Part shown: positions 3,622 to 52,818 of the stretch, piece after piece
How positions within the stretch are numbered: the stretch's first letter is position 1
Layout: every line of letters begins with the position of its first letter
Origin: a virus
DNA: 64,000 nt
Reading direction: 5' to 3' (one strand)
Virus record (IMG/VR): IMGVR_UViG_3300034121_001409
Coordinates: 1-64,000 of that record
Position numbers and translations under genes: made by a program
Notes under the pieces: model-generated
Told to the model about the DNA's origin: nothing
Seen by the model: the letters and a program-made list of their open reading frames with translations, nothing else
Databases searched by the model: none

Positions 3622-3622
3622 G

Positions 3623-4321: not shown

Positions 4322-4608
4322 TGCTCAGTTGATTTAATGTACTCTTCTGCCACCTGTCCTCTTAGATACTCTCCGGTGTCTGCAATCACATAAGGCTCAT
4401 GGATTCCTTCGATAATACTCTCCGGCACAGGGTAGTTAAAGCCACTCCCTTCTATCCTGTAATGGATAGTGATATCCGGCTGCTCATCTGACTCTGTGTG
4501 CTGTTCGGCAAATGTTCTGCCGACTATCTTACCTGTGAAGTATTTCTTCTTATACTTGAAAATTACGATATCTCCTAACTGATACTTTGTTGTTACTTCT
4601 TTTCCCAT
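4318..4608 (-). CDS. Small SH3/KOW-like hypothetical protein
   Basis: TKYQLGDIV...GKI...Y pattern; similar N-terminus to 8531..8734. Confidence 0.6.
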   Translation of the reverse strand: MGKEVTTKYQLGDIVIFKYKKKYFTGKIVGRTFAEQHTESDEQPDITIHYRIEGSGFNYPVPESIIEGIHEPYVIADTGEYLRGQVAEEYIKSTEQ

Positions 4609-16048: not shown

Positions 16049-16690
16049 TTACCTTATAGCACCAAAAAGAAACTTGGCGTTTTTCAACCTTCCGGCTGTT
16101 ACAACACTGCTTCCGGCTCCTTCTAAAAGCTCTCCTACGTTGTCTTTAGCGTAACAAACCTTCAGTCTTCCTGCTCTGTGCTTCTTGTTGATGTCAATAT
16201 CAATATGCTCAACCGGAGATATATTGTACAGGTCTATCATCTTAATCAGGCTGCTTTTTCTTATAGCGTAGCATACCGTAGACCACACGCATTCTTTTTC
16301 TTGCAGAAGATGATTAACGCTGCTTATTATCTTATGGTTTTTTGATGAAGCAAACGCTACCGGAAACACCATATCATACTGCTCCGGTGCAGAAGCCAAC
16401 ATCTCTTCTATTTTTTCTTTTGCATCCGAGTTTGCCTTCATATCATCCTCCATGAATACACACCAATCTGAATCATCACTCATGCTGTTCTGCCACATAA
16501 GCATATGGCTTACCCAACAACCCAACAACCCAAGCCTGTGTGATTTGTTTGTATTCCGGAGTTCTGTTTTATTGTTATTGAGACCATAAAAAACCTTTGG
16601 CTCTATACCGGCTTTATTCAATGTTACCAAAGTCCGTTGGAGCCTGTCCGGTGTTTCTTTCAGTGTGAGTATTGTATAAGATATTTTCAT
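16049..16690 (-). CDS. Glycosyltransferase family 25
   Basis: L....DR, GCWVSH..MW, FMEDD, YAI and HID motifs. Confidence 0.85.
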   Translation of the reverse strand: MKISYTILTLKETPDRLQRTLVTLNKAGIEPKVFYGLNNNKTELRNTNKSHRLGLLGCWVSHMLMWQNSMSDDSDWCVFMEDDMKANSDAKEKIEEMLASAPEQYDMVFPVAFASSKNHKIISSVNHLLQEKECVWSTVCYAIRKSSLIKMIDLYNISPVEHIDIDINKKHRAGRLKVCYAKDNVGELLEGAGSSVVTAGRLKNAKFLFGAIR

Positions 16691-19600
16691 TAGTTCTTTA
16701 TTCCAAATTCTTTACCAATATGCTTTATGATTTTATTACGAACCCTATCAACCTCTGCCTGTTTTTGCTCTAAAGTTTTCTTGGAGTTTTTATTGATGTC
16801 AGAAATTCCGGCTCCGTATTTTTTTGTCATTGACTCCCATACCATGTTTGATAATGCGTATTGCAAGTTTGGCTCAGAAGGCACTGATTTGCCATACTTC
16901 TTTTCATACATACTGATAACTTCTTTACGGATACCCTCATCCTTTAAAACTTTCTTAGCTACATCAGTTGATTTTCTCCAAATAGCCTCACTGTTAAGAT
17001 ATAAATTATTAGCCTGTACATAATCCCAATTCTTTTTGGCATCTTCACTCATGTTTACAAATCCGGCTATCATACGCAGGTTGTATAAACCACCCAATCC
17101 TAAGTCTTCTTCTTTGTACATCTGATTACCAAGAACATCAACCTTTGGTGGTCTGCTTCCAAGTTTAGCCATTACACTGTTATTCAAAACAAAGTTTTGG
17201 AATCCTGATAAATACTCAGAAGAACGTCTTTTTGTTTCCTGAGAGTTATCAAATAAGTTGCCTATATATTTATAGTAATTACTATTTGTTGGCAGAACCT
17301 GTGCCGGAGTCATCATCAGAGCAATAACTGCTTCTCTCTTTTTGTAATCATCGTTAGAGTTCAACGCATCCATAACCCTTTGGTATCCCACCATGTATCT
17401 TTGCTCTGCCATCCAATCTAAAGTTCCGGTCATCGCTGCACCGAATCCAACTTTGATTTTATCCTTAGATAATGCTTCAACTAATTCATTGTACTCATCG
17501 CTCTGTGTTGCATCTTTTCCTTTCTGTGCCTTTAGTTGCTGTTTTCTTGCAACCTTATTTGCTATATGACCAACAATAAACAAGTTAATACCAACAGGCA
17601 TATCTCGGTAATTAAATGAATGGTACTCTCCATCATCATCTTTATAAACAATAGATGTTGGATGATATGCGTCTCCTAAATTATCAGCAAGTTTTTTATC
17701 ATACCCACCCCAAATTTTAAATTTGTCATTATTGAACACAATACCCTTATCTTCATCGTCATCGTCATCATTTCCTTTAAACATCATACCCATCAATGTA
17801 GCGGTTAATGCCCATCCAATAGCTTGTCTTGCGAACCTATTGAAATGTTCATCGGAATCATAAACATACTCATCGCCCTGCGCTTTTTTAATCATCCCTT
17901 GTGCTGCAAAATCCATACCCTGAAACCCTAATCCTAAAATTGGATTATAATCTATCGCCATGCCTAATCCATGAGCAGGTATAGTTATTATAGGCATAAC
18001 TGTCATTCCTAAAAATTGACCTGCACTATAGAAAAATATCTGCGCTCTCTCAGATGTTGTTAATGTCGGCTTCTTAAGTATTTCATCTATTTGAGCTTGA
18101 CCAAAGTTTTTTAATTTACTTGAAGCAGAAATCATAATGTATGACAACAATCTATTGCTTCTGTGTAACAACATCGTCTCTGCTCTAAATGCAGCCAATC
18201 TACCCACATCTCCCAACTCCTCATACATTATCTCAGCCTTTCTTTTATTCTTGGTTAAATCACCTACAGTGACTCCGGTTGCTGCTAACGCTGCCATCTC
18301 TGCATCGAATCTATCTTGAACTCTTTTCTTAAACTCCGTTGTATTGCCAATCATCTCATCCAACTTATCCTTAAAGTCTACATCACTATGGTGAACACCT
18401 TGTTCTTTTAATGTTTTTAATGCAACCCTGTACACCTGATTGTGTGCAATCTTATCAGAGAAGAATCCATCCATAGCACCGAGTGAACGAGATGTTATTG
18501 TGTGACCCAACATGATATACTTCAATAAATTTCCAAGACCACCAAAATCCTTTTCAAATAAATGAGAATACAATCCTTTCTGCTGTCTGTATAGTTTTGA
18601 ATTTGTAGGCTCTGAAGATTTGATACTTTCCCATACAGTTTTTAATCTCTTGAAGAACCCATCTGACTCAATAGGATTTCCTTTCAATGATTCTTTTATA
18701 TTTATTCTTCCTTTTGCTGCATCCTGAAATCCCTGAAGCGTTATGCCTTCTAATGATGTTGCTGTAGCAGCAATGATATTTCTAAGCATAGTAGAAACAC
18801 TTCCGAGAATATGCGTATAAAACATCTCCTGTATAGTTGCAAAGAATGCCAAAGATTTTACGCCTTTATTTTTAGTAAGCAATGTGTTAAACTGAGCCAT
18901 TAAAACCTGTTTAACAGCACCCTGTGGTGTTGCCACTATAGCTTTAGCAAGATTCTGCAACTGAGTCATCAGTTGGCTGTTCATATGCGGTATACCCATT
19001 GCATCAAACACAGCAGAATACTTGGCTTTATTCTCCGGTGATAAATTACCAAACTTGAGAACATTATTTACCATTGCTTCTATTGGCGTAGTAGCTGCTG
19101 TAGGAATAATGCCGAGAATCTTCTCCTGTATCTTGCGCTCCTGATTTTTAAACACCTGCTCCGCTTTCTTTTCAACTCTTCTTTTTATATCCTTGAACAA
19201 TGCATCCGATATGGCTTTCGCTTCTGAATGAGTGAGACCTGTCTCTTTTATTATTCGCTGAACAAAATCAATAGCCTCTTTATTTACATCGCCAAAGTGA
19301 GATACTGCCAACTCTTTAATCTTCTCCTGTAATGCCTTTGGATTAGCTGCAAATCTTTCTCTCACAATACGTGATGCTTCACTATCTCTGAATGGTTTTC
19401 CTTTTGCAGAAGCTATGTATTCTTTCAGGTCTCTTTTCTTCTCATACTTTTCAGAGTCAGATAATGAACCATCATTATCAATCTGCTGCTCAACTACTGT
19501 GTATGCGTAATCCCACATACTGTCAGCCAAGTTATTGTTTCTTATTCTCCAAGCGATATCCTGTAGTAAGTTCTTACCATTAGGTTTTCTTGCCTTCTTG

Positions 19601-22600
19601 TTCTCTGATTTGTATTTGTCTATCAGAGCCTGAACCAACTTCTCCTCATTGGATTTTGCTTTTGGTGCAGAAGGATTCTCATGGTTTATAATTGCTTCAG
19701 CTAATCTGTCTTTTGGTGTAGCATCTTTCTTCGCCTCCGGCTCACTAAATTCTTTCGCCACAGTAGCTTCTACTTTAGCTTTGCCTCTGTCAGATAAATT
19801 TTGATACCAATCTGCTTCTCTCATTTTTTCCAATGCAGCAGCAAGACCATCTGCTATCTTTCCTGATATCTCTATTGCCTTAGCTCCTGCCTCTACAATA
19901 TCATCCCAAGATATTATTGCATTCTGAACAATATAGAACTGAATCTCATTTCCATTCTCATCAAATAACTTTGGTGGTTTTTTGCTTTTAAATTTCTTCC
20001 TGAATTTATCAGCCGTCTTCTTGGCTTCCTTCTCGTATGACTTCTTCTCCTTCTCTTTTTTGTCTGCCTTCTGAGAAGCCTCAGAATTGGCTTTTTTTGA
20101 CGTTTTATTTATAGCCGATGAAACATTGCTGTTCTTATCGTTAAACGCATCCTGAGCAGCCGCAGTAGCCTCGTTATTAATTTCTGACACAACCTCATCA
20201 AAGTTCTGCTCTGTAGTCTTGCCATTCTTCTCTGTGGAAGCCATTCTACTCTCCTGCTCTCTTGATACCTTATCAGTTAATCCTGTTAAAATACCTGCCA
20301 TTGGGTCGGTAGTTGCAGCAGCCATCTCAGTTCCTGATATTGTTAATCTTCCACTGTAAGCAGCCAACACTTTGTCTCTTAATTTACTGTTGCCTAAATT
20401 GTTTGCTAAAATCTGAAGCTTGTTTAATATTTTAATAGTCAGAAAACCTACAGGCTTCGCTCTCTCATCTCCTAACCTTGCAACCTCTTGTGCCACATTA
20501 CTTATATTGTCAAGTAAATCATTTACTGCTGCATATAAATCACCACCATTCTGAGCCATAGCTTCATTCACTATATCATTAGCCATCTTGTCTCCTTCCT
20601 CATGACTTACTACATCATTGAATACTTCTAAATCAGAAAACTCTGCAACATTAGCTCTTCTTGTGGTTCTACTTTGTGCTGTATCATTCGTTACCGGAAT
20701 TGTACTCCATCCAATAATATCGTACTTATCCTTTTCATTAACCGGAGGTGGTACATCTTCAAACATAGAGTCAATCTGCTCTTGAGAAAGACCTGCTTTT
20801 GATAGAGTATTCCTGATTGATTTCTCATCTATACCTTTATCCAACTGCAAGTCAACCCATATTTTAAATTTAGGGTCAACTCCTTGTGCAGAAAACTCAA
20901 CCTGCCTCATTTTTTTAAACGGAATACTATTAAGTTTTGCTGCTATTTTTTCAGGCAATCCTTTCTTTAAAATTTCCACTTCTTCTTTAGTTGGAATCTC
21001 ACTATATATACGGATTCTTTCTGCTATCTCGTATGCCTCATCAAATTTAGATTTGGATGATTTAAAGTTTGATATCTCTTCTGCAACAGAAGCTAATTTT
21101 TCTGCATTAAGAATTGCATCTTTCTCAGGATGTGGAATATTTTTAGTAGTAGCAGGTTTGCTTTTAACAGGAGCCATTTCAGGTTTCAAAGGAACGAGCG
21201 CATCTGCTCTTAATGCAGGAAGCTCAATCTTCTCTCCGGCTCTGCTATAATTCCATTCACCGATAGCCATCTCGTATCCATCCTTCTGTGCCAAACGAGC
21301 CATCTCCTTCTTTACCTTCTCATATCTAAACGGAGTGTACTCATCAACCTTCTTCTCTGCTCGTTGCTTATATCCATTAGGGTCTGTGTCCATTGGATAC
21401 ACCTTATCTTTTGGAACAACTACTTCGTATTTTTCACCTCCAACCATTTTTTCTCCATCGGTAGGTTTTGTATAGTAAGAAGCTACACCATACTGCAACC
21501 CCTTCTCATCTCTTGATGTTCTTGTTGAATTGAATTTTCTACTATCAATACCTTTCTGAATTGATTTCTCACTTGCATTGGATACATGGTAGAACACATA
21601 ACTTTTCCCATCTGCTGTTTGTGTAAGATGTGGTTCATAGTATGAATCCTTAATTAAGTTTCCTTGAGCCTGAAACTCTATCTCCTTAATACCCTTGCCC
21701 ATTGGTGCTACAACGGACTGCTTTGCAGACTCACTAAACTCCAAAGGCTTTTCGCCCTTTAATGTTTTTTTAGCGTTTAAAACCTCATACTTTTCTATGT
21801 ACTTTTGCTTTATATCACTTGTCATTAAATCATAAGCATTAATCTTCTTATCCGGAACGCCAACAACTTCTCCAAGTACGTCATAAGTGTATGTGCTATG
21901 CTTAGATTTACCACCAATGCCTGTGCTTTTTAAGACTATCATTATATCATTTAACCGGAAGTCGTTATCAGATAAAAACCCATCTCTAAGATTATTAATA
22001 TCTAATCCAAACCCCATCTGCCTTAGTAAATCAGCCTCCGGTGTAGTAAGTTTAGATTTTTCTATTAAGTGCAGAAGTATTAATTTTCTTTTTGAGTTAT
22101 CAGTTATAAATTCTCTAAAAGTGGTTGTGTTTTCAAAAATAAACTTTATATGACCCTTTGTGTATGACGAGTGTTTCTTAGGTTTACCATCTTTATCTAA
22201 ATCTTTCTTAGGGTCTTTTGCTTCTACATCTTTATTAAAATCAAGCCATGCATTTTTTAATTTATCAAAAGTAGATTTTCCTTTCAACTTTATTACTTCT
22301 TCATTTACTCCACCCTTGCCTGATTTGATAGTTAGCTCTTTTTTATTCCCTACTAATGCGTCTAATCTGTCATTAAACAACTCAGCGACTTGTTTATTAA
22401 ACAATTTACTATCAGATGGGCTTCCACTTATGATGAAAATATAATCCGAACCTTCTAATAACTTATTTAATTCCTTTAATTCAAGCCCTGATGCCCATAT
22501 AATTCCATTTTCTCTATTCTCAGGGTCTAATGCAAAACTTAATCCGGCATCTAAATAATGCTCACCATTCTTCACTTCATCGAAATACATTCCTCTTCCA

Positions 22601-25600
22601 AGTTGGTCTCCTACCCAAAAGAATACTTTCTGTTTATTTTCAGAAATTTCCTTTAACAAGGATTCAATATCTATGATATCTTCAGGTTTTACAAAAGACA
22701 ACTTATGACCCTCTTTTTTCACAACAACAGGAGTTGCTTTTTTTTCTTCCGAAGGAACCATAATATCAACAGGTGGAATTAAATTAAATTCTACATCCTG
22801 ATTAAATAAATCTTCAGGAGACTCAGCCATCATATCAATCCTATTACTCTCAGGGTCAAACGTTGTATTCGTTCCGTCTGCAAGTTTTATTTGGTTTGGC
22901 TCAAATACAACAAAGATATTACTTGATGGTGTTCTTAATACAGCAGAAGGGTCTAATGGGTCAATAAAATTATTAAACTGAATACCTTTGTTATCTTGCT
23001 TTCCTTCTTCAATCAAATCATCTACATAAGTATCGTTATCTAAATATGATTGTCCATCCATTTCTACAATGGTAGGGTTTCTTTCATTTAAGAACATCGG
23101 CAATATTTTATTACCGTATGTTTTTGCAACCTTTGGATTTGTTGTGAAATAAAAACCTTGATACCCGAATACTCTATTTTTAAACTCTGTAAAGTTTTCA
23201 TTCGTTCCATGATACACAACCAACGGTTCACCGTTTTCATCTACAACCTTACTTGCTTCTTTTGAAGTAATATTAGTAGTTGAAAGTTCCATGTATTTAT
23301 ATCCATTGTCATCTTCTGTAACTTTAAATCCAAATTTTGAAAAAAATACATCAGAGCCATTTCCTGTTTGTAGTCTTACTGTTGGTATATTAGATTCTTT
23401 TGCATCGTTAATTATTTTATTAATCAACTTTTTTCCATCACCCTTCTTCTTTGATTCAATATATCCTATTGACCAACTTTTATTATTCTTAGTTACATCT
23501 GCATAGCTATCTCCTAATGTGTATAAATCTTCTGTCCTGTCATTTAATTTCTCGCTTTCTATTTTTATGTCTTTAAATGCAGATACCGATTCCCAATCAC
23601 CAAACCAATTTTTAAACGCTTCTGTGCGTACAATACGCCACTGTGTTTCATCCAAGTTTGATTTCTTCCCATTAGGCGCAAGAAGGTTCCCTTCTTTATC
23701 TCTTACCAACTCAATACCTTTTGCCTGAAGATTCGCTTCCTGCATCACATTATCCACCTTGCTCTCCGGCATAAACTCACCCTTTCTTGCACTACCAAGA
23801 GTAGCAGAAACTAAATCAGCCATATTTAGCTTCATAATCTGCTCAGGTGTTAAACCCTTCAGTGATATACCAAACTTGTCAGCTATCCATCGTATTGCAG
23901 AAACTAAGGACTCTTTTAATTTCGCATAGAAATCAGGATTCAATTGCTCACTTCCGGCTCTTCCAACCATTGTTGTAATAGCCTCATCCATCATCCTTTT
24001 ATCGCTATACCCTTTGTAAGCAGGATTGTTTTTTACTTCATCCAAGAAGCCACCTTCTTTTGCTAATTGCTCTAATCTTTCTACAGCAGCCTTTGCCTGT
24101 GCATCGCCTTCCTGAGCCGCCATCTTCATCATATCAAGGAATGGATGGAAATGCTCATGTACTAAGCTCTCAGCGTTTAAAGTCTCTGAGTTGATATAAA
24201 TACTACCATCAGGGAAAACAGCTCCGTAAATGACTCCTTTTGGGGTTTGTATGTTTTTCGGATTACCAAACTCCTTCATCTTCTTATCGAAGGTCTCTCG
24301 GTCTGTAAATACCTTTCTTCCTTTGAATGCTTTGAAGCTACTCATAACTTCAACTAACCGATAGAACACATCTCTTGGTAAGATTTTAGAATTAGGTTTT
24401 TTACCTTCTAATGTTTCAGGTTTTTTTATTCCAACAAAATCCAACAGGTCATCTAACAGTGCATCTACTGTAGATTCTTTCTTTGGCTCCGGCTTAGGTT
24501 CCGGCTTTTTCTCAACCTTCATTGGCTCAGAAGGAATCAATGAAGCCTGTGGCTCTATTTGTTCTGATTTTAATTTGGCAGACTCCACAGCACCGTCATA
24601 ATCCTCTGTATACTCCCCTTGATATTTATCATACTTCTCAAACGTACCTGTTCTTTTTTCTATATCTTCCCTGCTTCCACCATCCCAATACATAACAACA
24701 ACATCCGGCTTGTCTTTTAATATTGAATTTTCCCAACCTTCTTCTGCCATGCTTTCATCAAACTTAATTCTTGCTATTGGCTTAAATCCAAATTTAGCAT
24801 AATAGGGTGGAAGGTATGTGTCGTAAGCATCTGTGTATCTCGCTCCAAGTTTTATAGCCATATTCAACAAAGGAGCCAATGTGTTCTGACCTTTAGGAAT
24901 ACTACTATGAGCAAATCCGCTTCCGCAATTTCCATCTGCTTCAACCATTATACCACTAAGACCATCTTTTGATACCAATAAATGCCCACCTTTTGCAATA
25001 ATGTCTGCATATTCTTTTACTGACTTAACATACACCTGTATTCCATCTTCACCTCTGCTTTCTTTTGCAGAACTTATTGCTTCATGAAATGCTTCAGCAT
25101 CATCAATCTCATACATTTCCTTGCCATCTAAAACAAATTTATTTACAGGCTTTACTTCTTTGCCGTTTATAGTAACAACATCTCCGTAACTATTATCCAT
25201 CGCCCAATCCGGAAGGAATCCTATTTTCTGCTCTGCAAATGGTCTTTTACTTGGCTCAAGATAACCTTCGTCACCCTTCTTTTTTATAGAGCCATCTTTA
25301 TTGCGCATATGATTGCCAAAGTTAACCCAAGAGTTCTGACCTCTTGTTGTTATAGTAAGGGCTTTCTGTGCCAATGGAGTGAACATACTCATATGCACCC
25401 TCCATGCATTCTCCTCTCCAATTGCACCAAACGCATTACCATATTCTGCATGACCAAATAAATCATGTACAGCTCTTATGAGTTCTACATTTGTCATTGG
25501 ATTGCCATTGATATCTTTATATCCGCTATCCTGTAGACCTATATTGCCTTCATCAAATTCCCTCGTTGTTCCAAATGATTCAGAAGATGGGTCAACCAAT

Positions 25601-28600
25601 ATTCTTTTATTGTTTTTAACATCCTCAATCATTTTCTTGCTATCACCATTATACCCCTCTCCTTCTTTTGCTAATTGGAATGAATAACCTGCTTTAATTA
25701 GTTCCTCTGCCTGTTTTTTTATTTCAGTTATTAACTCAGAAAACGCTTGTATAACCAATGGGTTATTAGGGTCATGTTTTGCTTCTTCATAAGCGTCAGC
25801 TATTCTTTTTGCGTCTTCTTCAGATACAGACAATATTAATCTCGGAGGATTATTTTTTATGTTGTTTAATTTCTTATACGCTCTACCTATTTTTGATATT
25901 ATAGAATTTACACCTCTTAGTATTTTATTTGGCTTTAAATTCTTTTTATCGTTTTCACTCTCGTCTTCTTTTTTATTTTTTTCTGAAGCCTTATATTTAT
26001 CAAGCATCTGCTTGTCCTGCATTTGAAAATACTTCGGGTCAAACTCACCATACCCATCATCTGTTCCTCTTTTCGTATCATACAATACTCCAACACCATC
26101 TACCATCTGTGGTACAGATTGTTGTTTTGTATCAGCAAGAAACTTCTCCATCTCAACATCCGTAAGTGGTCTTGATAACTCAATTGACAACGTAGGCTCT
26201 GCTCCTTCATAATCAGCCATCACTTCTGTAGAAGAGATAACCTTCACATCTTTTGGCAGCTTTGATAATATCTCTTCGTGAGACATTTTCTTCTGAGTTC
26301 TACCTTCCAATAAACCCACATTGATATGTGTTCCTTTTGGAGCCTTATCCACTTTTACCTCAACACCTTTAGATGATTTTTTATTTACATCGGCAGTGGC
26401 TCCTTCTGCCCCAACTTGTCCAACTCCATCAGTATCTTTTGGTACTGCTTTTTCAGCTCCTTGTTCTTTGGATTTGTCAGCAACCTCTGATACAGGCTTA
26501 TCAGTTTTTGTCTCAGTTCCTCTTGCATCTTTTTTCTCTTTTCGTTTTACCCTTTCGCTTTTTTGTCTTGGAATTTTTTCATCAGTTGCAACTGTTTCTT
26601 CTTTGGCAACTTCTTGAAGTTCTCCATCTTGTAAATCTTTTCTTGCTCCTTCATCTTCGTTGATGAACTGCTCGAACTCGTTTCTTGTGTCTTCATTTTC
26701 AAACTTTTTTAATTGTATCTGATAAGCCAAATCTTCGGCTGTATTTCCTCTGAATGTTCTTTTCTGCCCTTCCGGTGTATCAAGTGTTACTGAAACTATT
26801 TCTCCATTCTCATCGTAGTTTATTGCAGCAGAAGGGTCACTGTAGTTTTCAGCAGTGTACTCTTTCCCTCTTACTACAAAATTACCGGATTCATTTACAG
26901 TCACAACAGGCTCAATTGTTTCTATTCCATAAACACTCAACTCTTCAGCTCCAACTTCATCTATATTTCCAACCTCTCTTTCTAATCCGCTTTTTTCTAC
27001 AAACACAACCGTCTGACCATCTACTATCAATCTTCCTTCTTTCCCATCTAAACGTGCAGGTTTTTCAATTGCTTCATTTATTGTAACGTCAGGCACTTTC
27101 TCTTCAACAACAGGCTCCTCTGTTGGTTTTATTTCCGGCTCTTTATTTTTTACTTCTACCTGCTGAACGGATGGTTGTGCTATCTTATCAAGCTCGTTTT
27201 TAAATACACGCAAAACATCGCCTGTTTTATCATCTTTAATAATATACTCATCTCCGTCTTCTTCAAGAACACTGTAGCTGTTTCCTTTATAATCAACTTG
27301 AGTTCCAACCTTATTATCGTTTAATTTTTCTTGTTCATACAAAACAGTCTCTTCCGCTACAGGAACTCCCATTGATAAATCAGATAAAGTTTTGTTTATT
27401 TCTGTAAGCCTTGAGTTGTATTTTTCTTTTAACTCAGGTGCTTTTGACACCTTAGCTTCTATCGCTCCTTTTTCTTTAAGCAAACCTGCTAATATAGGAT
27501 GTAGTTTCTTTGGCACATCTGACTTCAGAGCTTTAAATTTTTCTTGAACTTTTTTCATTTGCTCTATCTCTGAATCATGTGTTTCTTCAGATATTATTCC
27601 AAGATTTTTCTTTTTTTCTAACCCCAACATCCATTCTAATGGGTTTTGTAATATCCCAAGTGTGGCGTTATTTGATTCTGAAGAACGCATTGTTTCTATG
27701 GCAGAAGGAAGAAAAACTGAACCTAATGTTATAATGGTACTCGCCAAGTTTTCTTTAGACAAAACATCCGTCTGTTCTAAATCTTCTCCATCTTTTGTTT
27801 TTGACTCCCCATAGGCATTAATTATATTCTGCAATATTGGCTCTGCAACATTTTCCTCTAATACTTCAGGGATTGCATTTGACGCTGTGTTTATTATTAG
27901 TTTTTTTGCTGCAAGATTTACTGATGTTTTATCTAATGCAGTAAAAGATTGTAGTGTTTTTTTTGAGAAACTTGTTATGTTTTTAAACATTTCTGCTTCC
28001 ATAGGGTTGGCAAGACTTATTAACGCCACCCCTGCGCTTGATATGGCTGCATATACTGCTGCATCATTCTTTGTGAAACCTTTATCAATTGCATCATCCA
28101 TTAATTCATTTTGCAATTGAGTCATAATAGCAAGTGATGTAAGTAACTTTTCGTTGTTTGCTAACTTTGTCAATTTAGATGCTTTTGTAATAGCACCCAA
28201 CCCTTTAAATGGTGCAGCTATAAGACCACCTTCTCCTATCATCACAAGCATATCTCCTACAACATTAGCTGTTTGATTAAACACCATTTCTCCGGACAAC
28301 CATTGTGTCTTTTTACTATACTCATCTTTTGCTGATGAATACTTCTTCGAAATAAAATCATACGCTATAGGATTATTAACAACATAATCATCTTTATCTC
28401 TTAAAGATATAGGATTGCCTTCTGAGTCTAAATAAAGTTTATACCCATCAATCTCTGTATAGCTTTGAGCCATTGACCTCTGCATATTGGTAGGTGTATT
28501 ATTCATAGCCTGAACCGCATCAACCCATTGGTCTGTGTTATTTGCCAATCTATCTGTCCAATTGTAATCCTGACTTCCGGCTAATCCACTCACAAATCTC

Positions 28601-29961
28601 GGCACTGACATTACATCATTCAAAAAACCCAATCCTACATGAGTAGAAATATTTTTAAACTTATTAAATTCATCACCAAATTTATACCACGTATCATTTT
28701 TAGCTGTTTCATCTATTTCTATTTGCCTTTTTGCAGCAGCAGCTAACTCCTCTTTTACTTCTTTATACTTAGGGTCATTTATCAAGTTTGTTGATTGGGT
28801 AAAATTATCGTTTAATGCACCGTAAGCAATTTGAAGATTTGCTATGTCAGCATCATCAGAAGGAATATTTTCTAAATTTACCTCCCAATCTTTTCCATAT
28901 TTTTGAACTACATTATCAAGAGACTCTTTGTATTTTTGTTTTAGTATATCTTGCTTTAAACCAAATCCACTCTGCTTCATTTTATACTCAGAAGTTGCAC
29001 TGTTATTTGCTGATTTAAGTTGGTAATCATACTGAACCATTCGGTCTTTTTCTCTTTCTGATGCATAATACAATTCATCAGGGGAAGAAATAGCAATCTC
29101 ATCTAAACTAACATAATTATGGAATGGAATATACGCAGTTGTTTTGTCAGGAACTGAAAACCTTTCTGTGATTGAAGCGTCTGTATAAATAGCCTCTTCT
29201 TTTCTCAACTCATCCTGAGCTATAGCATTATCAGTCAATGATTTTAATACAGCAGGATTTTTACTTTGCGTCTGCTTAAATTGAGCTGCTGCATCATTTA
29301 TCTTAAAAGGATTTTTTTTAGCTTTCTCTACTTCTTTTTTTACATCTTGCTGTTGTATAATAAATTGAGATGGAGATTGAGTATATGTATTATCAGTTGT
29401 AACTTTCTCTTTTTGGAAATCTAATATTTCTGCATAATTTTGATTTGACACATCACTCAATTCACTAACCTTGTCATAAGATAAATCCTTACCTGTTAGG
29501 GTTTGCAATGCTACTGTTTTTTTATCTTTAACCGGAGGCAATACTTGCTGCTCTGTATATGGAGACGGTGTTCCTGTTCCAAGTATTTTCTTTGCCTTAG
29601 CTATCGTTTCTGCGTTTTGTTTTTTTACTGTGATATCTAAACCAAAATAAGGAACACCTTGTATTTTATTCCCTTCCGGTTTTAATGGAGATACTAATGG
29701 AGATTTGGATTGGGAAATATCGTTTGTAACAACGCTTTGCTTTTGCGTAGAATTGCCTGAAGGCTGCTGAGTATTGTCTTTTTTTTTTACAGGTTCAATA
29801 TTTGTATCAAAATCAGTAACATCAATATATTTTTTAGATTCTTCTTTTATTGCATCACGATAAGATTTATCTTTTACATTTGCTGAAAACTCATCAAACG
29901 AACCAAGAGATAACTTATCTTGCATTTCATCATACACCGCCTGTAAATATTCATTCGCCAT
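16690..29961 (-). CDS. Giant (4423 aa) polyvalent virion ejection protein with zincin-like, GNAT-like and ADP-ribosyltransferase-like domains
   Basis: Located after the tail and ejection genes; RAVHDLFGH, HEHFH, LAPNGKKSNL..FKNWFGDW, VVDENGEPLVVYHGT..GFYFT and YYAKFGF motifs; helical C-terminus with an LPD38-like region. Confidence 0.8.
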   Translation of the reverse strand: MANEYLQAVYDEMQDKLSLGSFDEFSANVKDKSYRDAIKEESKKYIDVTDFDTNIEPVKKKDNTQQPSGNSTQKQSVVTNDISQSKSPLVSPLKPEGNKIQGVPYFGLDITVKKQNAETIAKAKKILGTGTPSPYTEQQVLPPVKDKKTVALQTLTGKDLSYDKVSELSDVSNQNYAEILDFQKEKVTTDNTYTQSPSQFIIQQQDVKKEVEKAKKNPFKINDAAAQFKQTQSKNPAVLKSLTDNAIAQDELRKEEAIYTDASITERFSVPDKTTAYIPFHNYVSLDEIAISSPDELYYASEREKDRMVQYDYQLKSANNSATSEYKMKQSGFGLKQDILKQKYKESLDNVVQKYGKDWEVNLENIPSDDADIANLQIAYGALNDNFTQSTNLINDPKYKEVKEELAAAAKRQIEIDETAKNDTWYKFGDEFNKFKNISTHVGLGFLNDVMSVPRFVSGLAGSQDYNWTDRLANNTDQWVDAVQAMNNTPTNMQRSMAQSYTEIDGYKLYLDSEGNPISLRDKDDYVVNNPIAYDFISKKYSSAKDEYSKKTQWLSGEMVFNQTANVVGDMLVMIGEGGLIAAPFKGLGAITKASKLTKLANNEKLLTSLAIMTQLQNELMDDAIDKGFTKNDAAVYAAISSAGVALISLANPMEAEMFKNITSFSKKTLQSFTALDKTSVNLAAKKLIINTASNAIPEVLEENVAEPILQNIINAYGESKTKDGEDLEQTDVLSKENLASTIITLGSVFLPSAIETMRSSESNNATLGILQNPLEWMLGLEKKKNLGIISEETHDSEIEQMKKVQEKFKALKSDVPKKLHPILAGLLKEKGAIEAKVSKAPELKEKYNSRLTEINKTLSDLSMGVPVAEETVLYEQEKLNDNKVGTQVDYKGNSYSVLEEDGDEYIIKDDKTGDVLRVFKNELDKIAQPSVQQVEVKNKEPEIKPTEEPVVEEKVPDVTINEAIEKPARLDGKEGRLIVDGQTVVFVEKSGLEREVGNIDEVGAEELSVYGIETIEPVVTVNESGNFVVRGKEYTAENYSDPSAAINYDENGEIVSVTLDTPEGQKRTFRGNTAEDLAYQIQLKKFENEDTRNEFEQFINEDEGARKDLQDGELQEVAKEETVATDEKIPRQKSERVKRKEKKDARGTETKTDKPVSEVADKSKEQGAEKAVPKDTDGVGQVGAEGATADVNKKSSKGVEVKVDKAPKGTHINVGLLEGRTQKKMSHEEILSKLPKDVKVISSTEVMADYEGAEPTLSIELSRPLTDVEMEKFLADTKQQSVPQMVDGVGVLYDTKRGTDDGYGEFDPKYFQMQDKQMLDKYKASEKNKKEDESENDKKNLKPNKILRGVNSIISKIGRAYKKLNNIKNNPPRLILSVSEEDAKRIADAYEEAKHDPNNPLVIQAFSELITEIKKQAEELIKAGYSFQLAKEGEGYNGDSKKMIEDVKNNKRILVDPSSESFGTTREFDEGNIGLQDSGYKDINGNPMTNVELIRAVHDLFGHAEYGNAFGAIGEENAWRVHMSMFTPLAQKALTITTRGQNSWVNFGNHMRNKDGSIKKKGDEGYLEPSKRPFAEQKIGFLPDWAMDNSYGDVVTINGKEVKPVNKFVLDGKEMYEIDDAEAFHEAISSAKESRGEDGIQVYVKSVKEYADIIAKGGHLLVSKDGLSGIMVEADGNCGSGFAHSSIPKGQNTLAPLLNMAIKLGARYTDAYDTYLPPYYAKFGFKPIARIKFDESMAEEGWENSILKDKPDVVVMYWDGGSREDIEKRTGTFEKYDKYQGEYTEDYDGAVESAKLKSEQIEPQASLIPSEPMKVEKKPEPKPEPKKESTVDALLDDLLDFVGIKKPETLEGKKPNSKILPRDVFYRLVEVMSSFKAFKGRKVFTDRETFDKKMKEFGNPKNIQTPKGVIYGAVFPDGSIYINSETLNAESLVHEHFHPFLDMMKMAAQEGDAQAKAAVERLEQLAKEGGFLDEVKNNPAYKGYSDKRMMDEAITTMVGRAGSEQLNPDFYAKLKESLVSAIRWIADKFGISLKGLTPEQIMKLNMADLVSATLGSARKGEFMPESKVDNVMQEANLQAKGIELVRDKEGNLLAPNGKKSNLDETQWRIVRTEAFKNWFGDWESVSAFKDIKIESEKLNDRTEDLYTLGDSYADVTKNNKSWSIGYIESKKKGDGKKLINKIINDAKESNIPTVRLQTGNGSDVFFSKFGFKVTEDDNGYKYMELSTTNITSKEASKVVDENGEPLVVYHGTNENFTEFKNRVFGYQGFYFTTNPKVAKTYGNKILPMFLNERNPTIVEMDGQSYLDNDTYVDDLIEEGKQDNKGIQFNNFIDPLDPSAVLRTPSSNIFVVFEPNQIKLADGTNTTFDPESNRIDMMAESPEDLFNQDVEFNLIPPVDIMVPSEEKKATPVVVKKEGHKLSFVKPEDIIDIESLLKEISENKQKVFFWVGDQLGRGMYFDEVKNGEHYLDAGLSFALDPENRENGIIWASGLELKELNKLLEGSDYIFIISGSPSDSKLFNKQVAELFNDRLDALVGNKKELTIKSGKGGVNEEVIKLKGKSTFDKLKNAWLDFNKDVEAKDPKKDLDKDGKPKKHSSYTKGHIKFIFENTTTFREFITDNSKRKLILLHLIEKSKLTTPEADLLRQMGFGLDINNLRDGFLSDNDFRLNDIMIVLKSTGIGGKSKHSTYTYDVLGEVVGVPDKKINAYDLMTSDIKQKYIEKYEVLNAKKTLKGEKPLEFSESAKQSVVAPMGKGIKEIEFQAQGNLIKDSYYEPHLTQTADGKSYVFYHVSNASEKSIQKGIDSRKFNSTRTSRDEKGLQYGVASYYTKPTDGEKMVGGEKYEVVVPKDKVYPMDTDPNGYKQRAEKKVDEYTPFRYEKVKKEMARLAQKDGYEMAIGEWNYSRAGEKIELPALRADALVPLKPEMAPVKSKPATTKNIPHPEKDAILNAEKLASVAEEISNFKSSKSKFDEAYEIAERIRIYSEIPTKEEVEILKKGLPEKIAAKLNSIPFKKMRQVEFSAQGVDPKFKIWVDLQLDKGIDEKSIRNTLSKAGLSQEQIDSMFEDVPPPVNEKDKYDIIGWSTIPVTNDTAQSRTTRRANVAEFSDLEVFNDVVSHEEGDKMANDIVNEAMAQNGGDLYAAVNDLLDNISNVAQEVARLGDERAKPVGFLTIKILNKLQILANNLGNSKLRDKVLAAYSGRLTISGTEMAAATTDPMAGILTGLTDKVSREQESRMASTEKNGKTTEQNFDEVVSEINNEATAAAQDAFNDKNSNVSSAINKTSKKANSEASQKADKKEKEKKSYEKEAKKTADKFRKKFKSKKPPKLFDENGNEIQFYIVQNAIISWDDIVEAGAKAIEISGKIADGLAAALEKMREADWYQNLSDRGKAKVEATVAKEFSEPEAKKDATPKDRLAEAIINHENPSAPKAKSNEEKLVQALIDKYKSENKKARKPNGKNLLQDIAWRIRNNNLADSMWDYAYTVVEQQIDNDGSLSDSEKYEKKRDLKEYIASAKGKPFRDSEASRIVRERFAANPKALQEKIKELAVSHFGDVNKEAIDFVQRIIKETGLTHSEAKAISDALFKDIKRRVEKKAEQVFKNQERKIQEKILGIIPTAATTPIEAMVNNVLKFGNLSPENKAKYSAVFDAMGIPHMNSQLMTQLQNLAKAIVATPQGAVKQVLMAQFNTLLTKNKGVKSLAFFATIQEMFYTHILGSVSTMLRNIIAATATSLEGITLQGFQDAAKGRINIKESLKGNPIESDGFFKRLKTVWESIKSSEPTNSKLYRQQKGLYSHLFEKDFGGLGNLLKYIMLGHTITSRSLGAMDGFFSDKIAHNQVYRVALKTLKEQGVHHSDVDFKDKLDEMIGNTTEFKKRVQDRFDAEMAALAATGVTVGDLTKNKRKAEIMYEELGDVGRLAAFRAETMLLHRSNRLLSYIMISASSKLKNFGQAQIDEILKKPTLTTSERAQIFFYSAGQFLGMTVMPIITIPAHGLGMAIDYNPILGLGFQGMDFAAQGMIKKAQGDEYVYDSDEHFNRFARQAIGWALTATLMGMMFKGNDDDDDEDKGIVFNNDKFKIWGGYDKKLADNLGDAYHPTSIVYKDDDGEYHSFNYRDMPVGINLFIVGHIANKVARKQQLKAQKGKDATQSDEYNELVEALSKDKIKVGFGAAMTGTLDWMAEQRYMVGYQRVMDALNSNDDYKKREAVIALMMTPAQVLPTNSNYYKYIGNLFDNSQETKRRSSEYLSGFQNFVLNNSVMAKLGSRPPKVDVLGNQMYKEEDLGLGGLYNLRMIAGFVNMSEDAKKNWDYVQANNLYLNSEAIWRKSTDVAKKVLKDEGIRKEVISMYEKKYGKSVPSEPNLQYALSNMVWESMTKKYGAGISDINKNSKKTLEQKQAEVDRVRNKIIKHIGKEFGIKN

Positions 29962-31385
29962 TATTCAAATTTTTTAGTTACTGGATTCCATTTTTTCTGT
30001 TTCTTCACTACAGACGAGGAAGAACTTCCACTTGAGCTGCTTTGTGTTCCTAAGCTCTTATCGCTTCCCCAAAGTGTTTCATTTTTATTTGCATTAAACC
30101 CTTCCTCAAATGCATTACCCAATACACCTTCTGATACACCTTTAATATATTCGGCTGTATTTGCCCCTTTTCTTACTATTATACTTTTTGAACCATTAGG
30201 AAGCTCAGCGTTAAAATCAATCTTTAAATACTCGATATTAGGGTCAGGCATATTTCCTGTGTTAGCATCCCTTAGATTATCAATTTCACTTCCTTTTACT
30301 GTCGCTACTTTTGTTGGTTGGGTATACTCAGGTTTCCCTGTTTGAGAATCATAGCTTACAACAAAAGGCATATTTGATAATCTTTCTATAGCTGATGCAT
30401 CTCCATTAACTAAAGCTGCAACCCACTCTGTTTTGTTTTTCTGAACCTTTTCTGTTTTACCAAAATTAGAACGCTCTTTTCTGCCTTCCTCTTGCTTGTA
30501 ACCTAAAGCTATTTTTTCTTTTCTCGCTGCTATAGCCTCTGCTAATTTAGCATCATTCTGAGCAAATGCCTTCGCTTTAGCGGCATCGTAATATGTGTTT
30601 TTTATTTGGTCTGACAAACTCTGTAAATAAACCTCTCTCGCTGCTTCAGGGTCATCGGTTGCATCAAACTCAGCTATATTTAAACTTAATCTTTTCTTAC
30701 CATTATCAATAATAGACTGAGCATATTCATCTGCAACTTCATTCATCTTGTCCAAGTCCTCAATCTTCTCAGGATAATATAATGTTGGAAGAGTTTTATT
30801 AAAATTGGTAACAATAGTTTCCTTTTTGAACTGCTCCGGCAATACTTCTCTTAGTTGTGTCTCCGGCATACCGCCTACAAACTTTTCAATATCCGCAGGG
30901 AAATCTTTAGCTCCGGCAAAATACTCATCCATTTTTCTTTGACTTTCTTTTGTGTACTTTTGTTTATCTGCTTCTTTTTGATTAACCCAAGCCTCTGCAT
31001 AAGAGCCAAATTTTTTACTTAAATCCGCTTGTCTTGCTAAATCGTATTGCTCTTTCTGCCACTCAGCTACTCTTGGGTCTCTTACATTGTTCAAGTCTAC
31101 ACCATCTGCTAATAAATCAATACCCTTATCGTGTAACTCCTGAACCTTTCCTTGAAAATACTTGGTATGTCCTAAGTGATAATCTACAGGTAAATCCTGT
31201 AACGCTTTTACTTGGTCTGCTTTCTTTTTTTGTGCGGCTGCCTTTTCTTCTTTTTTATCAGCAGAAATTTTATTTAACGCTCTCTCAAAATATGCAGGTG
31301 CATCTCCTTTATCTAAAAGAAATGCCTCTCCTTCTCCTCTTGCAAATGGCGAACCTAAGTATGTTAAATTTCTTGACTGTGACAT
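29961..31385 (-). CDS. Probable ejection / internal virion protein
   Basis: Helical and charged; lies between the pilot-like gene and the giant gene; TAATG coupling. Confidence 0.55.
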   Translation of the reverse strand: MSQSRNLTYLGSPFARGEGEAFLLDKGDAPAYFERALNKISADKKEEKAAAQKKKADQVKALQDLPVDYHLGHTKYFQGKVQELHDKGIDLLADGVDLNNVRDPRVAEWQKEQYDLARQADLSKKFGSYAEAWVNQKEADKQKYTKESQRKMDEYFAGAKDFPADIEKFVGGMPETQLREVLPEQFKKETIVTNFNKTLPTLYYPEKIEDLDKMNEVADEYAQSIIDNGKKRLSLNIAEFDATDDPEAAREVYLQSLSDQIKNTYYDAAKAKAFAQNDAKLAEAIAARKEKIALGYKQEEGRKERSNFGKTEKVQKNKTEWVAALVNGDASAIERLSNMPFVVSYDSQTGKPEYTQPTKVATVKGSEIDNLRDANTGNMPDPNIEYLKIDFNAELPNGSKSIIVRKGANTAEYIKGVSEGVLGNAFEEGFNANKNETLWGSDKSLGTQSSSSGSSSSSVVKKQKKWNPVTKKFE

Positions 31386-31390
31386 CTTTA

Positions 31391-32140
31391 TTAATTGAAT
31401 AATTTAGGCTGAAATAAACCAAGTCCTAATTTTTGTGAGTTTGACATAAAAGAACCAAAATTAACCTTGCTGCTTGGTGAGCTGCTACTAAAAAGACTTT
31501 TGCTTCCCTGAAGGGCATTATTTAAACCACTACCTCCACCTCCGGTTGCTGCCGGAGCTGCTGCTTCTCCTCCCTTCCCAAACATACCACTACCCATCAT
31601 AGATGCACCCATGCTTCCCATAGTATTTAATCCGGTATTAATATTCTGCTCTCCTGCTGCAATCTTTGACATCGCAGATTTTCTGTCTTCTTGGTAAGGT
31701 ATATTTTGATTGTAATCAAATTCCTTATCTGTATAATCAGCCATCGTATTTAATGCATTTAACCTCTGTGCCTCTGAAGCTAATCTTTGTTGTGCAGCCT
31801 GAATGCCGATTCCTGCCATTGCATTATTCTCGTTAATCTGAGCTTTGTAAATATCATTACTGCTTCCAAAATCTTTAGCTGCATTTAATGCAGAAGCTGT
31901 TGATTGACCAACAGACTCCTCCATCTGTCTCTGCCCTGCTAATTCAGGGTTAGCAGCACGTAAAGCTGTCATTCTGTTTAATTGGTCAATCTCTTCAGGT
32001 CTTTGATAATTAGGGCGTACAAGACCTTTCATCTCCTTACGACCTTCCTTAGCCTGTTTAGCTCCTTTAACCATTTGGGCAATAGAACTTGCTAATCCCA
32101 TTGCCGCACCTATTCCTCCTGATATTGGGTCTGCTCCCAT
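31391..32140 (-). CDS. Probable DNA pilot / ejection protein
   Basis: Gly/Ala-rich hydrophobic N-terminus (DPISGGIGAAMGLASSI), Gln/Ala-rich coiled coil, Gly-rich C-terminus. Confidence 0.65.
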   Translation of the reverse strand: MGADPISGGIGAAMGLASSIAQMVKGAKQAKEGRKEMKGLVRPNYQRPEEIDQLNRMTALRAANPELAGQRQMEESVGQSTASALNAAKDFGSSNDIYKAQINENNAMAGIGIQAAQQRLASEAQRLNALNTMADYTDKEFDYNQNIPYQEDRKSAMSKIAAGEQNINTGLNTMGSMGASMMGSGMFGKGGEAAAPAATGGGGSGLNNALQGSKSLFSSSSPSSKVNFGSFMSNSQKLGLGLFQPKLFN

Positions 32141-32146
32141 GATAAT

Positions 32147-35100
32147 TTATTTAGTTGTTTGAGAATCGGTTAATTCAACGTTTATTGAATACAATATTAC
32201 TTCTTTTTGTTCAAAATTCCTAAGCCTTATTAACATTGTATTTCCTTTAAGGATTTCACCTCTCAGTAAGGCTGTAGTTTCTCTTTGCTGAACGTCTGCA
32301 ATATCACTAAAGTTCCGGTCATTCATATTACGCAGAAAGTCTGCTCTCCAATCCCCTTCTTCCTGTACAAAATGAGCTGCATTTAATTGGCTGTACTGTA
32401 ATATACTGCCCTCCTGACCGGATACAACAATACCCTTATCAGGTGCAATAAACAGTGCATTACCAATTTCTCTTATATGCATAAAATCTTTCTTGCTTGT
32501 TGGTGAAATATTAACCACTGCATCTATACCACAAGGATTTAATGCGCCATAGAAAGACCCTCTATTTGGATTCTTATCATGCACCCATAAAGCTCCATCC
32601 CTGAACGAAACAAAAGAGCGATGAACAGGAGACATGGTGTCCGGAATGTATGAATAAAAAGTCATCCATCTATTTTTTCTCATCTCACCCCTGAAGGTGT
32701 TATTAAATGATATTGTCTCAGTAAGAGCAGGTATGGTTACTATCATTTCATCATTGGCTCTATCATAAGAAGCTATAACTCTTTTATCGGCAGAAGAAGC
32801 CAATTGTTTTGCTACAGAAGACCAATATGTATTTGCATCGTAATCAGAAATATCAAAAATTCCTGAGTATTGGTATCTCCAATAAACTCCTTTCGAAACA
32901 TCCCAAGCATACAGCTCTCCGTTTTCAATAACTACTGATTCCGGATTCTGTGTTCCCCTGTCTTCTTTTATTGGCAATGCAAGATTCGCTATCCGGCTGC
33001 TCTTCATTAATGTGCTTCCGCTTCCATCCACCTCATAAGTCTGTGTTGCATTAATATAAATTGGAACTGTTTTAAATTTACATACTGCTAATAAAACATT
33101 GGCTGTATAACCTAAGAACATTACATACCCAAATGTTTTATCTATCTCTGTTCCGTTTGCATCTTTTACATAATCAGAAGACATAAATCTATTCAGCTCA
33201 TTAATATTAGTCTGAGCAATATACCTACCGGAGAATCTTGTTCTGTTGTAAACAGCTTGTTTATAATCTTTATCTTCCACATCAAATCTCCCGATAGACT
33301 GAACCCTACTGTCTGCATTATTCTCATGCATATACTCAGATTCATAAATACCACTCAATGTCTCTTTGGTATCTATTGGTGGAGGCTCCGGTGGTGTGCT
33401 TTCATCGTACACAACTATTGGCATCTTTCTGTTCACAAAATAACTATCACCAAACTTTAATACACCCTTAGCAGGTTGTGAGTCCGTCTGTGTTTGACCA
33501 TTATATCCTGCGCCATGTTTACCATTCACAATTGGATAACACTCTGTAATCTCATAAAAGATATCCTGTGTTGACTCACTCTTCGGATTCCACGCTTCTA
33601 TGGTTACGCCCTTCTGTAGTTTAGGCAATGTAGAGTCATTTTTTATGACAAGATATGTGGAGTCAAACAATGTATCAGTTCTGTCATTTTCTACACGAAC
33701 ATCATAATATTTATCAAACCACACTCCTTTTTCATCTTTCATTAACGTTACCCTGTCTTCTTTCTGAAACTCCCATGTTAACACACTTGAGCTGTTATCT
33801 TTTCCGTAATCAACCAAAGATTGAAGTGAAATATAAATCTCTGTTGCATCTCCTCCTTCAAATGAAGTCTCTTGTATTGCAGCACCTCCTGTTCCGAATG
33901 ATTTTATATAACGAGCTTCATTAATTATAAACTGCTGATATTTGTTGTATATAGGATTTTTAATTCTTACAATCTGATACATAACCGCCATTGGTGGTGG
34001 TAGGTGATTTATCTCCCAAGAAACAACAGGAAGACCTTTATTCCCATTATCCTCAGTCCAAAATGGGATATAAGTTTTTAACGAATCGGAGGTTTGCACT
34101 TTTGTGCTTTTTGCATAATCCTCATAATATTTTATTCCAAGATGAACATTGTTTCTGTGCTTCCATATAGCTCCCTTTGGAGTATTTATTATTCCTTCAA
34201 AAACCCTATTAATCACAAATGGATTCTCTGCATTGTATTTGCCAACACCTTCTCCGAATTGGTTTATTATATAAACTGTAAGGTTTGAAAAAAACTTCGG
34301 GCAACAATCATCTTTAGAGATAAGCATCACTATATCACCCCTGTATAGACTTGAATCTATAGTATAAACCATCAATCTAAAAACACCAAACCTATCTGTG
34401 TATGCAATTCTTCCACACCTACTGCTAACCACACCTATTCCGGTTAGTGGGTCTCCATTTTGGTCAACAATTGTGCCTTGTATAAATGTTCTTCTAAAAT
34501 CTGATACAGATGGAGTGCGGTTGTACACTATGAAATCATCTATACTTCCTGATGATAATTCTGCTGTAATTACTGAAGACAATGAGCCTGAATATAGCGC
34601 ACCTAAGTTTCCTTTATAAAAAGCCTCATCAGACCATTTAATTGATTTTCCACCTGTAGTTACTCTGAATTTTGCATCGAGAGCATTAGCTAAACCTACA
34701 TCCCCAATTGAATAGAAATAAAATCCATTATGGTCTGCCTTATTGTTTGGTGAACTAACTAAACTTTTGGCTCCAATAACTCCACTATCATTAAAATTCC
34801 TAACAACTACATCTGCACACTCAATAGATTGACCTGATTTTAAATCTTCAATATCCCCATTGTGTGATGTCACTGCATCTATCACATATAATGCTGCCCC
34901 AAAATCATTTCCAATGGCATTCGTAGTGAAATCCATTATCTCTAAAAAATCAGGAACCTCTATCACACCATTCACTGCTGTTCCGGTATTTATTTGAACT
35001 TCGGTTATATCTTGCTCTGCCATTCTGTTCAAGTAAGAAGACGTTCGTTGCCAAGCTATACCATTATTTATATTGTAGATTGAACCGTACCTGTCATCCG

Positions 35101-51198: not shown

Positions 51199-51202
51199 TG
51201 TA

Positions 51203-52804: not shown

Positions 52805-52818
52805 TGTACTATTTTTAA

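Follow-up and report, generated by a model that had tools for sequence, protein, structure and literature searches.

Phage polyvalent proteins combine unrelated effector domains in one polypeptide, shuffle these domains between relatives and typically adjoin late virion genes (Iyer, Burroughs, Anand, de Souza and Aravind 2017, PMC5512222); ADP-ribosyltransferase (ART) domains of the ART-PolyVal family next to a GNAT domain are a known pairing among them, and zincin-like domains also occur. They are regarded as the earliest weapons that a phage uses in a cell, and the majority of their modules have yet to be characterised. We analysed a stretch of 64,000 nucleotides (the window), the first 64 kb of the 75,194-bp IMG/VR virus record IMGVR_UViG_3300034121_001409, which has direct terminal repeats, and in it a giant gene on the minus strand (16690..29961, ~13.3 kb). 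The gene is a single ATG-to-stop open reading frame (ORF) of 4,423 codons, overlapping the neighbouring gene on either side by one base, and an open frame of this length at a genomic G+C content of ~36% rules out chance. Its product, P0001, is a well-supported and unusually module-rich member of the polyvalent-protein class and no new kind of system. We are fairly confident that it is a late-expressed protein, probably carried inside the virion and released from the capsid together with the DNA.

A word-based search yielded 44 giant relatives of 2,500 to 4,060 amino acids, and pairwise BLAST against these relatives defined the blocks of P0001. Conserved N- and C-terminal bodies enclose seven or eight swappable modules, labelled A to G with E divided into E1 and E2 (Table 1). 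Residues 447-1079 and 3079-4392 are collinear with those of the metagenomic giants P0003-P0011 at 25-28% identity and constitute the carrier (the end bodies), whereas each domain proposed in an earlier, sequence-only reading of this stretch is a separate block whose order varies among the other giants (44 or more). The ORF and every motif quoted in that reading were found in place (RAVHDLFGH at residue 1496, GEENAW at 1515, YYAKFGF at 1720, HEHFH at 1935, WFGDWE at 2119, FFSKFGF at 2206, VVYHGT at 2248, FFWVGDQLGRG at 2447, YIFIISGSP at 2507, VFYHVS at 2789 and ASYYT at 2827), and its domain boundaries agree with the independent block map from the 44 homologues; its list of domains had overlooked module A (~1144-1336) and the N-terminal body. 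Module order was counted in a pool of 545 proteins or ORFs selected through module F, so that the frequencies are biased: F was present in 238 members and D stood directly upstream of F in 180 of these 238, and in this pool both the combination A-B-C-D-E2-F-G and an interruption of the D-F pair were found in P0001 only. Among ~240 relatives P0001 is the sole protein with seven recognisable modules on one conserved carrier, the richest architecture sampled.

P0001 resembles the polyvalent proteins of PMC5512222 in having more than one unrelated effector-type domain (an ART-PolyVal domain, a zincin-like domain and five independently recurring modules), in having an ART-PolyVal domain with a plausibly GNAT-like neighbour, and in its location at the end of a virion block that is syntenic with structural genes of phages phi38:1, elemoC and Gundel_1. 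Gene context and shuffled, recurring modules likewise bear out the earlier description of a polyvalent protein that has many modules and is encoded among virion genes. As differences from the described set, P0001 matches only ART-PolyVal among the Pfam models of that set, its zincin-like domain is not MPTase-PolyVal by hidden Markov model (HMM), no LPD domain was detected, modules A, B, C, F and G belong to families without a Pfam model, and the hosts are freshwater and marine Bacteroidota podophages.

The giant gene is the final gene of a terminase-portal-capsid-tail (virion) block. PHROG and Pfam scans of the genome identified a terminase, GroEL, a GroES-like protein, DnaB helicase, primase and several "virion structural protein" families. 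The terminase matched only Flavobacterium elemoviruses (~30%), Cellulophaga phages, Tenacibaculum phage Gundel_1 and a Maribacter phage, and the portal matched only Calle, phi38:1 and phi40:1 (Pervagoviridae) and Gundel_1 (Pachyviridae) at ~22%; for the capsid candidate no match was found. These Pervagoviridae and Pachyviridae relatives are podophages of 73 to 79 kb, and the core genes of Pervagoviridae include cpn10 (PMC8776804); the GroES-like (cpn10) gene found here agrees with the portal relationship. No Crassvirales record was present among the terminase or portal matches. The crAss-like framing of the sequence-only reading was therefore dropped: judged by these homologies, the phage is a lake-water podophage of Bacteroidota and distant kin of Elemovirus, Pervagoviridae and Pachyviridae, not a crAss-like phage.

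Of the three genes preceding the giant gene, the one for the 1,596-amino-acid protein is homologous to the virion structural proteins phi38:1 gp097 and Gundel_1 gp060. The run of three is followed in the relatives by elemoC gp20 (a 3,694-amino-acid "structural protein") and phi38:1 gp101 (a 1,691-amino-acid "structural protein"), and the counterpart in Gundel_1 is gp074. Flavobacterium phage vB_FspP_elemoC_14-1A (Elemovirus) resembles the phage studied here in having a terminal giant after a run of ~1,500 amino acids, two small proteins and ~450 amino acids, and its gp20 has modules D (E value of 5e-71 to the D profile) and G (1e-61). However, the end bodies of P0001 and gp20 have no detectable similarity, gp20 has DUF3293 and is without A, B, C, E1 and E2, and the terminases are only ~30% identical.

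The earlier claim that the protein lies in place of a virion RNA polymerase was not supported, as its positional counterparts in relatives are annotated as structural proteins and none as a polymerase. A related alternative is that the end bodies themselves are a highly divergent virion RNA polymerase (crAss-like or N4-like) with added effector domains. Both crAss-like cr85_1 gp056 and phage N4 gp50 are encoded by giant last genes of a podophage virion block, and the gene order found here (portal, capsid, large, small, medium, giant last) mirrors that of N4 (gp59...gp53-gp52-gp51-gp50), a likeness of position only; moreover, crAss-like and N4-like polymerase proteins bear ART and zincin add-ons (PMC5512222), and the rest of the 75-kb genome yielded no RNA polymerase. 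Nevertheless, a motif of the D-x-D-G-D type was absent from all ORFs of at least 150 amino acids except the primase (DTDGD), comparison of the end bodies with cr85_1 gp053/gp054 and N4 gp50 by BLAST, HMM and hhalign (profile-profile) showed no similarity, no Pfam or PHROG polymerase family matched, and the nearest language-model clusters of the end bodies were unnamed viral proteins, which makes a hidden polymerase very improbable. Whereas cr85_1 and N4 have a recognisable virion RNA polymerase, this genome gave no polymerase signal, similarity is limited to the linker and the ART domain, and terminase and portal match neither Crassvirales nor Schitoviridae. In cr85_1 itself the ART-PolyVal cargo protein gp056 lies beside the polymerase and does not replace it.

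The strongest assignment within the cargo is that of module E2, which matched ART-PolyVal (PF18760) with E values of 2e-20 and 2.6e-24 (74-82 bits versus a cut-off of 31.2) over positions 1-140 of the 140-position model (residues 2241-2368), the single site of this model in the whole genome. On the strength of this match E2 is a bona fide ART-PolyVal ADP-ribosyltransferase domain, certain as a family member. A second ART domain, proposed for module G, was not confirmed: neither G nor 11 relatives had a Pfam match at E values up to 1, a PDB profile search was empty, and in profile-profile comparison with ART the probability was 3%, no better than for unrelated pairs. Module E1 gave sub-threshold Pfam matches to Acetyltransf_10, _4, _7 and _1 (E values of 0.004 to 0.25) and to ArsN2 (0.0067) and is plausibly GNAT-like, one of two GNAT domains that had been proposed. 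The other, in module C, fared less well, with no GNAT match in C or 7 relatives, none in PDB sequences, and only a 10-residue Y-x-K-x-G-F motif aligning with E1. The sequence-only reading had further described E1 as a GNAT insert in the ART domain; both pieces are present, but E1 follows the linker motif and ends before the Pfam ART model starts, so that it lies outside the ART domain.

The linker upstream of E1 (~39 residues, APNGK.SNL..QW..VRT..FK.WFGDWE), for which there is no Pfam model, is also found in "DarB-like" proteins and always stands just before a cargo module. It abuts ART directly in cr85_1 gp056 and is followed by Kinase-PolyVal in P0003. The giants P0003-P0011, which share the linker and the following ART-PolyVal domain with P0001 in addition to the end bodies, have Kinase-PolyVal and ART-PolyVal in the slot held here by E1 and ART, and unlike P0001 they are without A, B, C, F and G. 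Models of Kinase-PolyVal, LPD3, DUF7178 and DUF3293 had no match in the genome studied here.

Module turnover was also observed between close relatives of the gene itself. Its central 6 kb was found in Logan contigs from at least 5 other lake or freshwater metagenome studies, and contigs of four other runs were compared over 20500-26500. One contig of 68,850 bp (depth 14.8), assembled in a separate freshwater study, spans the gene without the cassette that comprises a boundary motif, the linker, E1 and E2 (Table 1); an open frame of 4,110 codons remains, with D adjoining F, and elsewhere 61 bases are substituted among ~5,060 aligned. In a contig of run X6, from a third study, 16 bases are found in place of 23256-23589 (E1), in frame, which changes residues 2125-2236 into six residues; the joint reads WFGDWE-NDPANS-SKVVDENGEPLVVYHGT, the same arrangement as in cr85_1 gp056. 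These in-frame module losses among close contigs indicate that, within a single phage lineage, the units of change in the cargo block are entire modules, and the natural lake variants without one or two modules show dispensable pieces of cargo and recombination joints. At the conserved end of the ART domain (22856-22905), several contigs in three lake metagenomes break and have unrelated continuations, and the summed contig depth in bin 22711-22911 is 2 to 5 times that of neighbouring bins; this C-terminal ART end seems to be either common to several genomes or a recombination joint.

P0001 contains three copies of a short boundary motif, [FLIM][QSK]A[QKE]G (residues 2078, 2763 and 3023), each at a module border, versus 0.2 expected from shuffling. 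Its density is ~20 times that of 201 other giants, and it is absent from the other proteins of the phage. These E-(F/L)-(Q/S)-A-(Q/K)-G border motifs may be cleavage sites that release modules. Together with the zincin-like domain, they would be compatible with processing of a non-packaged late polyprotein, cut into separate enzymes that act on the host or on progeny virions (e.g., in modification or maturation), and the glycosyltransferase gene that comes next, with its one-base overlap, fits such a role. We nonetheless regard a non-packaged polyprotein as improbable: the giant gene lies inside the virion block, away from early and middle genes, the class is linked to virion genes and to MuF/portal fusions (PMC5512222), and the long hydrophobic end bodies would have no obvious role in a cytoplasmic polyprotein. 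The third boundary motif lies in a hypervariable patch (20769-20922), with ~25 differences in the 68.85-kb contig, which is ~1% divergent over the rest of the compared stretch; in two places there (20805/20812 and 20881/20886) a one-base deletion and a one-base insertion compensate each other.

In the reading that we favour, that of a virion-borne polyvalent protein, the role of the two end bodies (447-1079 and 3079-4423), which are mostly helical and in part hydrophobic, would be in packaging and passage, and the independently folding modules between them would be active in the cytoplasm of the host at the onset of infection. The cargo would consist of ART-PolyVal with the preceding GNAT-like piece, the zincin-like module D, paired in relatives with the possibly PUA-like F, the putative metalloenzyme B, and modules A, C and G, and would evolve as entire modules are acquired or lost in frame at the conserved linkers. 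Several points weigh against this reading. Packaging and injection are deduced from gene context, "structural protein" in the relatives is a database annotation not traced to experiment, and phi38:1 gp101 has no sequence similarity to the giant protein. Five modules have no recognisable catalytic family, so that the arsenal of enzymes announced in the sequence-only reading is proven for one domain only, with the zincin and the GNAT plausible; even in the ART domain the first histidine alone among the catalytic residues is clearly conserved in an 18-sequence alignment. The X6 variant is one contig at depth 2.8, and the boundary motif is peculiar to this protein and its pattern was set after seeing it.

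Some of the same facts would suit a protein that is chiefly part of the structure or the ejection machinery (a podophage internal core, channel or tail-extension), its modules being decayed passengers or spacers. About 2,000 of the 4,423 residues belong to conserved end bodies with hydrophobic segments, two of which (567-586 and 633-653) lie in the N-terminal body, relatives at the same position are annotated solely as structural proteins, and most modules match no enzyme family. However, B, D, F and G retain polar residues of catalytic appearance that are conserved in at least 90% of their relatives (dozens to hundreds), ART-PolyVal is matched over the full model, and whole modules are gained or lost in frame while the bodies persist. 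Since such in-frame turnover with the bodies kept is cargo-like and unlike a scaffold, we consider a chiefly structural role unlikely.

In tblastn, neither the first 1,333 nor the last 1,424 residues of P0001 matched any of 50,697 phage records; peptide patterns from the C-terminal body gave none in IMG/VR, and the whole giant protein gave none against PDB sequences. A word-based search with region 3079-4423 was also empty, which is a sensitivity failure of that search because BLAST aligns P0003-P0011 there. The C-terminus had been called LPD38-like, and this was not upheld: LPD38 (PF18857) was not found in the Pfam scan of P0001 at E values up to 1, and the same library detected it in the relative P0039 (2.8e-33); the LPD38 segment of P0039, used as a single sequence in hhalign against the C-terminal body alignment, gave a probability of 0.2%. 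A genome-wide search with the LPD38 model was empty, but its controls were likewise silent, which makes this search uninformative. The sole lead to LPD38 for the C-terminal body was a language-model neighbour at 0.94. In one IMG/VR relative (L006:14967-18677), a homologue of the C-terminal body (E value of 8e-13 to its profile) is a separate gene of 1,237 amino acids downstream of an F-bearing giant, a locus that, as far as homology tells, holds carrier and cargo in split form.

Up to two peptidases had been proposed for P0001, one of which, the HExxH-bearing module D, is plausibly a zincin-like domain of the HExxH+E type, whereas for module B, with its HDLFGH motif, no peptidase match of any kind was obtained. 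The weak matches of D fell mainly to families of the zincin type, among 36 members 6 with DUF5700, 4 with M78/IrrE and 3 with SprT, besides Mx1, and IrrE was matched in the PDB with an E value of 0.39. MPTase-PolyVal (PF18818) had no match genome-wide at E values up to 10, and none in Pfam scans.

Module F, noted earlier as an unassigned domain from FFWVGDQLGRG to YIFIISGSP, proved to be a real one without a Pfam family. An exhaustive HMMER search of 1.84 billion representatives retrieved 147 clusters (99 at E values up to 1e-30), mostly in proteins of 2,000 to 3,900 amino acids, and 72 loci were found in IMG/VR; as sampled by these searches, F appears as a small family confined almost wholly to such giants and usually directly behind the zincin-like D. 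The AlphaFold model of F (predicted local distance difference test [pLDDT] of 60-92) had no match in the PDB by Foldseek. The best match of the F+G model in BFVD was elemoC gp20 (2.9e-12), followed by uncharacterised phage proteins, and the F model gave middling matches to PUA-like (YTH/ASCH/EVE) barrels; the ASCH and EVE family models had no match in the genome. A speculative and rather improbable reading is that D and F form a conserved two-domain effector, in which the conserved Asp/His/Tyr pocket of a PUA-like barrel would read or process modified nucleic acid or nucleotide, delivered at infection by phages of Bacteroidota against modification-sensing or nucleotide-based defence, with A as a possible virion-borne anti-restriction enzyme of the S-adenosylmethionine (SAM) lyase type.

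Module A was modelled as a ferredoxin-like domain (pLDDT of 71-90). Its best fold matches were ACT domains and a phage SAM lyase (Svi3-3), which tied, and T3 SAMase and a SAM-AMP lyase ranked lower; no link to phage SAM lyase or T3 SAMase was found at the sequence level. Module B belongs to a family with at least 623 homologues of stand-alone size that also occurs in "large polyvalent protein" genes of cyanophages. Its conserved residues (R1496, H1499, D1500, H1504, E1516, E1517, H1523, R1540, Q1542 and N1543) resemble a metal site, and B is probably an enzyme that depends on a metal. Neither a known family nor a solved structure matched B, and a 58-sequence B profile was empty against PDB sequences. 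Its HDLFGH resembles the iron-binding motif of phenylalanine hydroxylase (PAH). That enzyme was rejected as a candidate for B: Foldseek gave PAH/TH at E values of 0.02 to 0.2, but the Biopterin_H model had no match and the 58-sequence profile was empty as stated, and PAH was absent from a second fold comparison (VIA) of the A+B model, in which the list was filled by module A matches. MATCAP (PF08014), suggested by 2 of 120 B homologues, was also rejected, with no match in the genome and none for P0278 against the PDB. In module G, of which the structure model was weak (pLDDT of 45-78) and the VIA list was taken up by matches of the neighbouring domain, H2792, T2815, Y2830, E2837, Y2855, D2860 and W2903 are kept in at least 90% of the 61 sequences. 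The analysis thereby defines three sizeable families without a Pfam model, namely B (with hundreds of stand-alone homologues), F and G.

Table 1. Coordinates of the parts of P0001, of the cassette and of the upstream genes
Feature	Residues	Position in window	Strand	Remarks
Three genes upstream of the giant gene (1,596, 249 and 474 amino acids)		29961..36937	-	Syntenic with phi38:1 gp097-gp100, elemoC gp24-gp21 and Gundel_1 gp060
N-terminal region	1-446	28624..29961	-	Partly low-complexity; homologue search empty
N-terminal body	447-1079	26725..28623	-	~25% identity with P0003-P0011 (3,572-4,000 amino acids)
Module A	1144-1336	25954..26532	-	Missed in the sequence-only reading
Module B	1345-1605	25147..25929	-	HDLFGH...GEENAW domain; PHROG 3170 (function unknown); no Pfam model
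Module C	1610-1810	24532..25134	-	phrog_2563; 27 sequences in pool
Module D	1860-2087	23701..24384	-	Plausibly zincin-like; H1935, E1936, H1939 and E1993 each kept in at least 90% of 120 relatives
Boundary motif, NLQAKG region	2078-2082	23716..23730	-	Between D and linker
Cassette (939 nt, 313 codons)	~2066-2378	22827..23765	-	Boundary motif, linker, E1 and E2; skipped in 68,850-bp contig
Linker motif APNGKKSNL..QW..VRT..FK.WFGDWE	2088-2126	23584..23700	-	67-69% identical in unrelated giants and cr85_1 gp056
Module E1	2127-2236	23254..23583	-	Small GNAT-like piece (plausible); KKKGDG, FFSKFGF
Module E2	2237-2380	22822..23253	-	ART-PolyVal; Pfam match at 22858-23241, full model length
Module F	2384-2761	21679..22812	-	No Pfam family
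Boundary motif, EFQAQG region	2763-2767	21661..21675	-	Between F and G
Module G	2770-2945	21127..21654	-	Family of 61 sequences, also in elemoC gp20
Spacer from G to C-terminal body	2946-3078	20728..21126	-	Common to P0019 and P0020; contains third boundary motif
Boundary motif, EFSAQG region	3023-3027	20881..20895	-	Before C-terminal body
C-terminal body	3079-4423	16693..20727	-	28% identity over ~1,300 residues with P0003-P0011

Three further features of the window were noted outside the giant gene. Downstream of it, at 16049-16690, a glycosyltransferase family 25 protein of 213 amino acids (E value of 1.7e-11) starts on the last base of the stop codon of the giant gene, an arrangement that couples an enzyme gene, at the level of translation, to the last gene of the virion block. 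A chaperonin set immediately upstream of the terminase (50941-53811) consists of GroEL (phrog_5725, 1.6e-136) and a 330-amino-acid protein with GroES-like units. At 39024-41636, the structural block encodes a protein of 870 amino acids with a bacterial Ig-like (Big_9) domain (1.9e-16), probably a tail fibre or receptor-binding protein.
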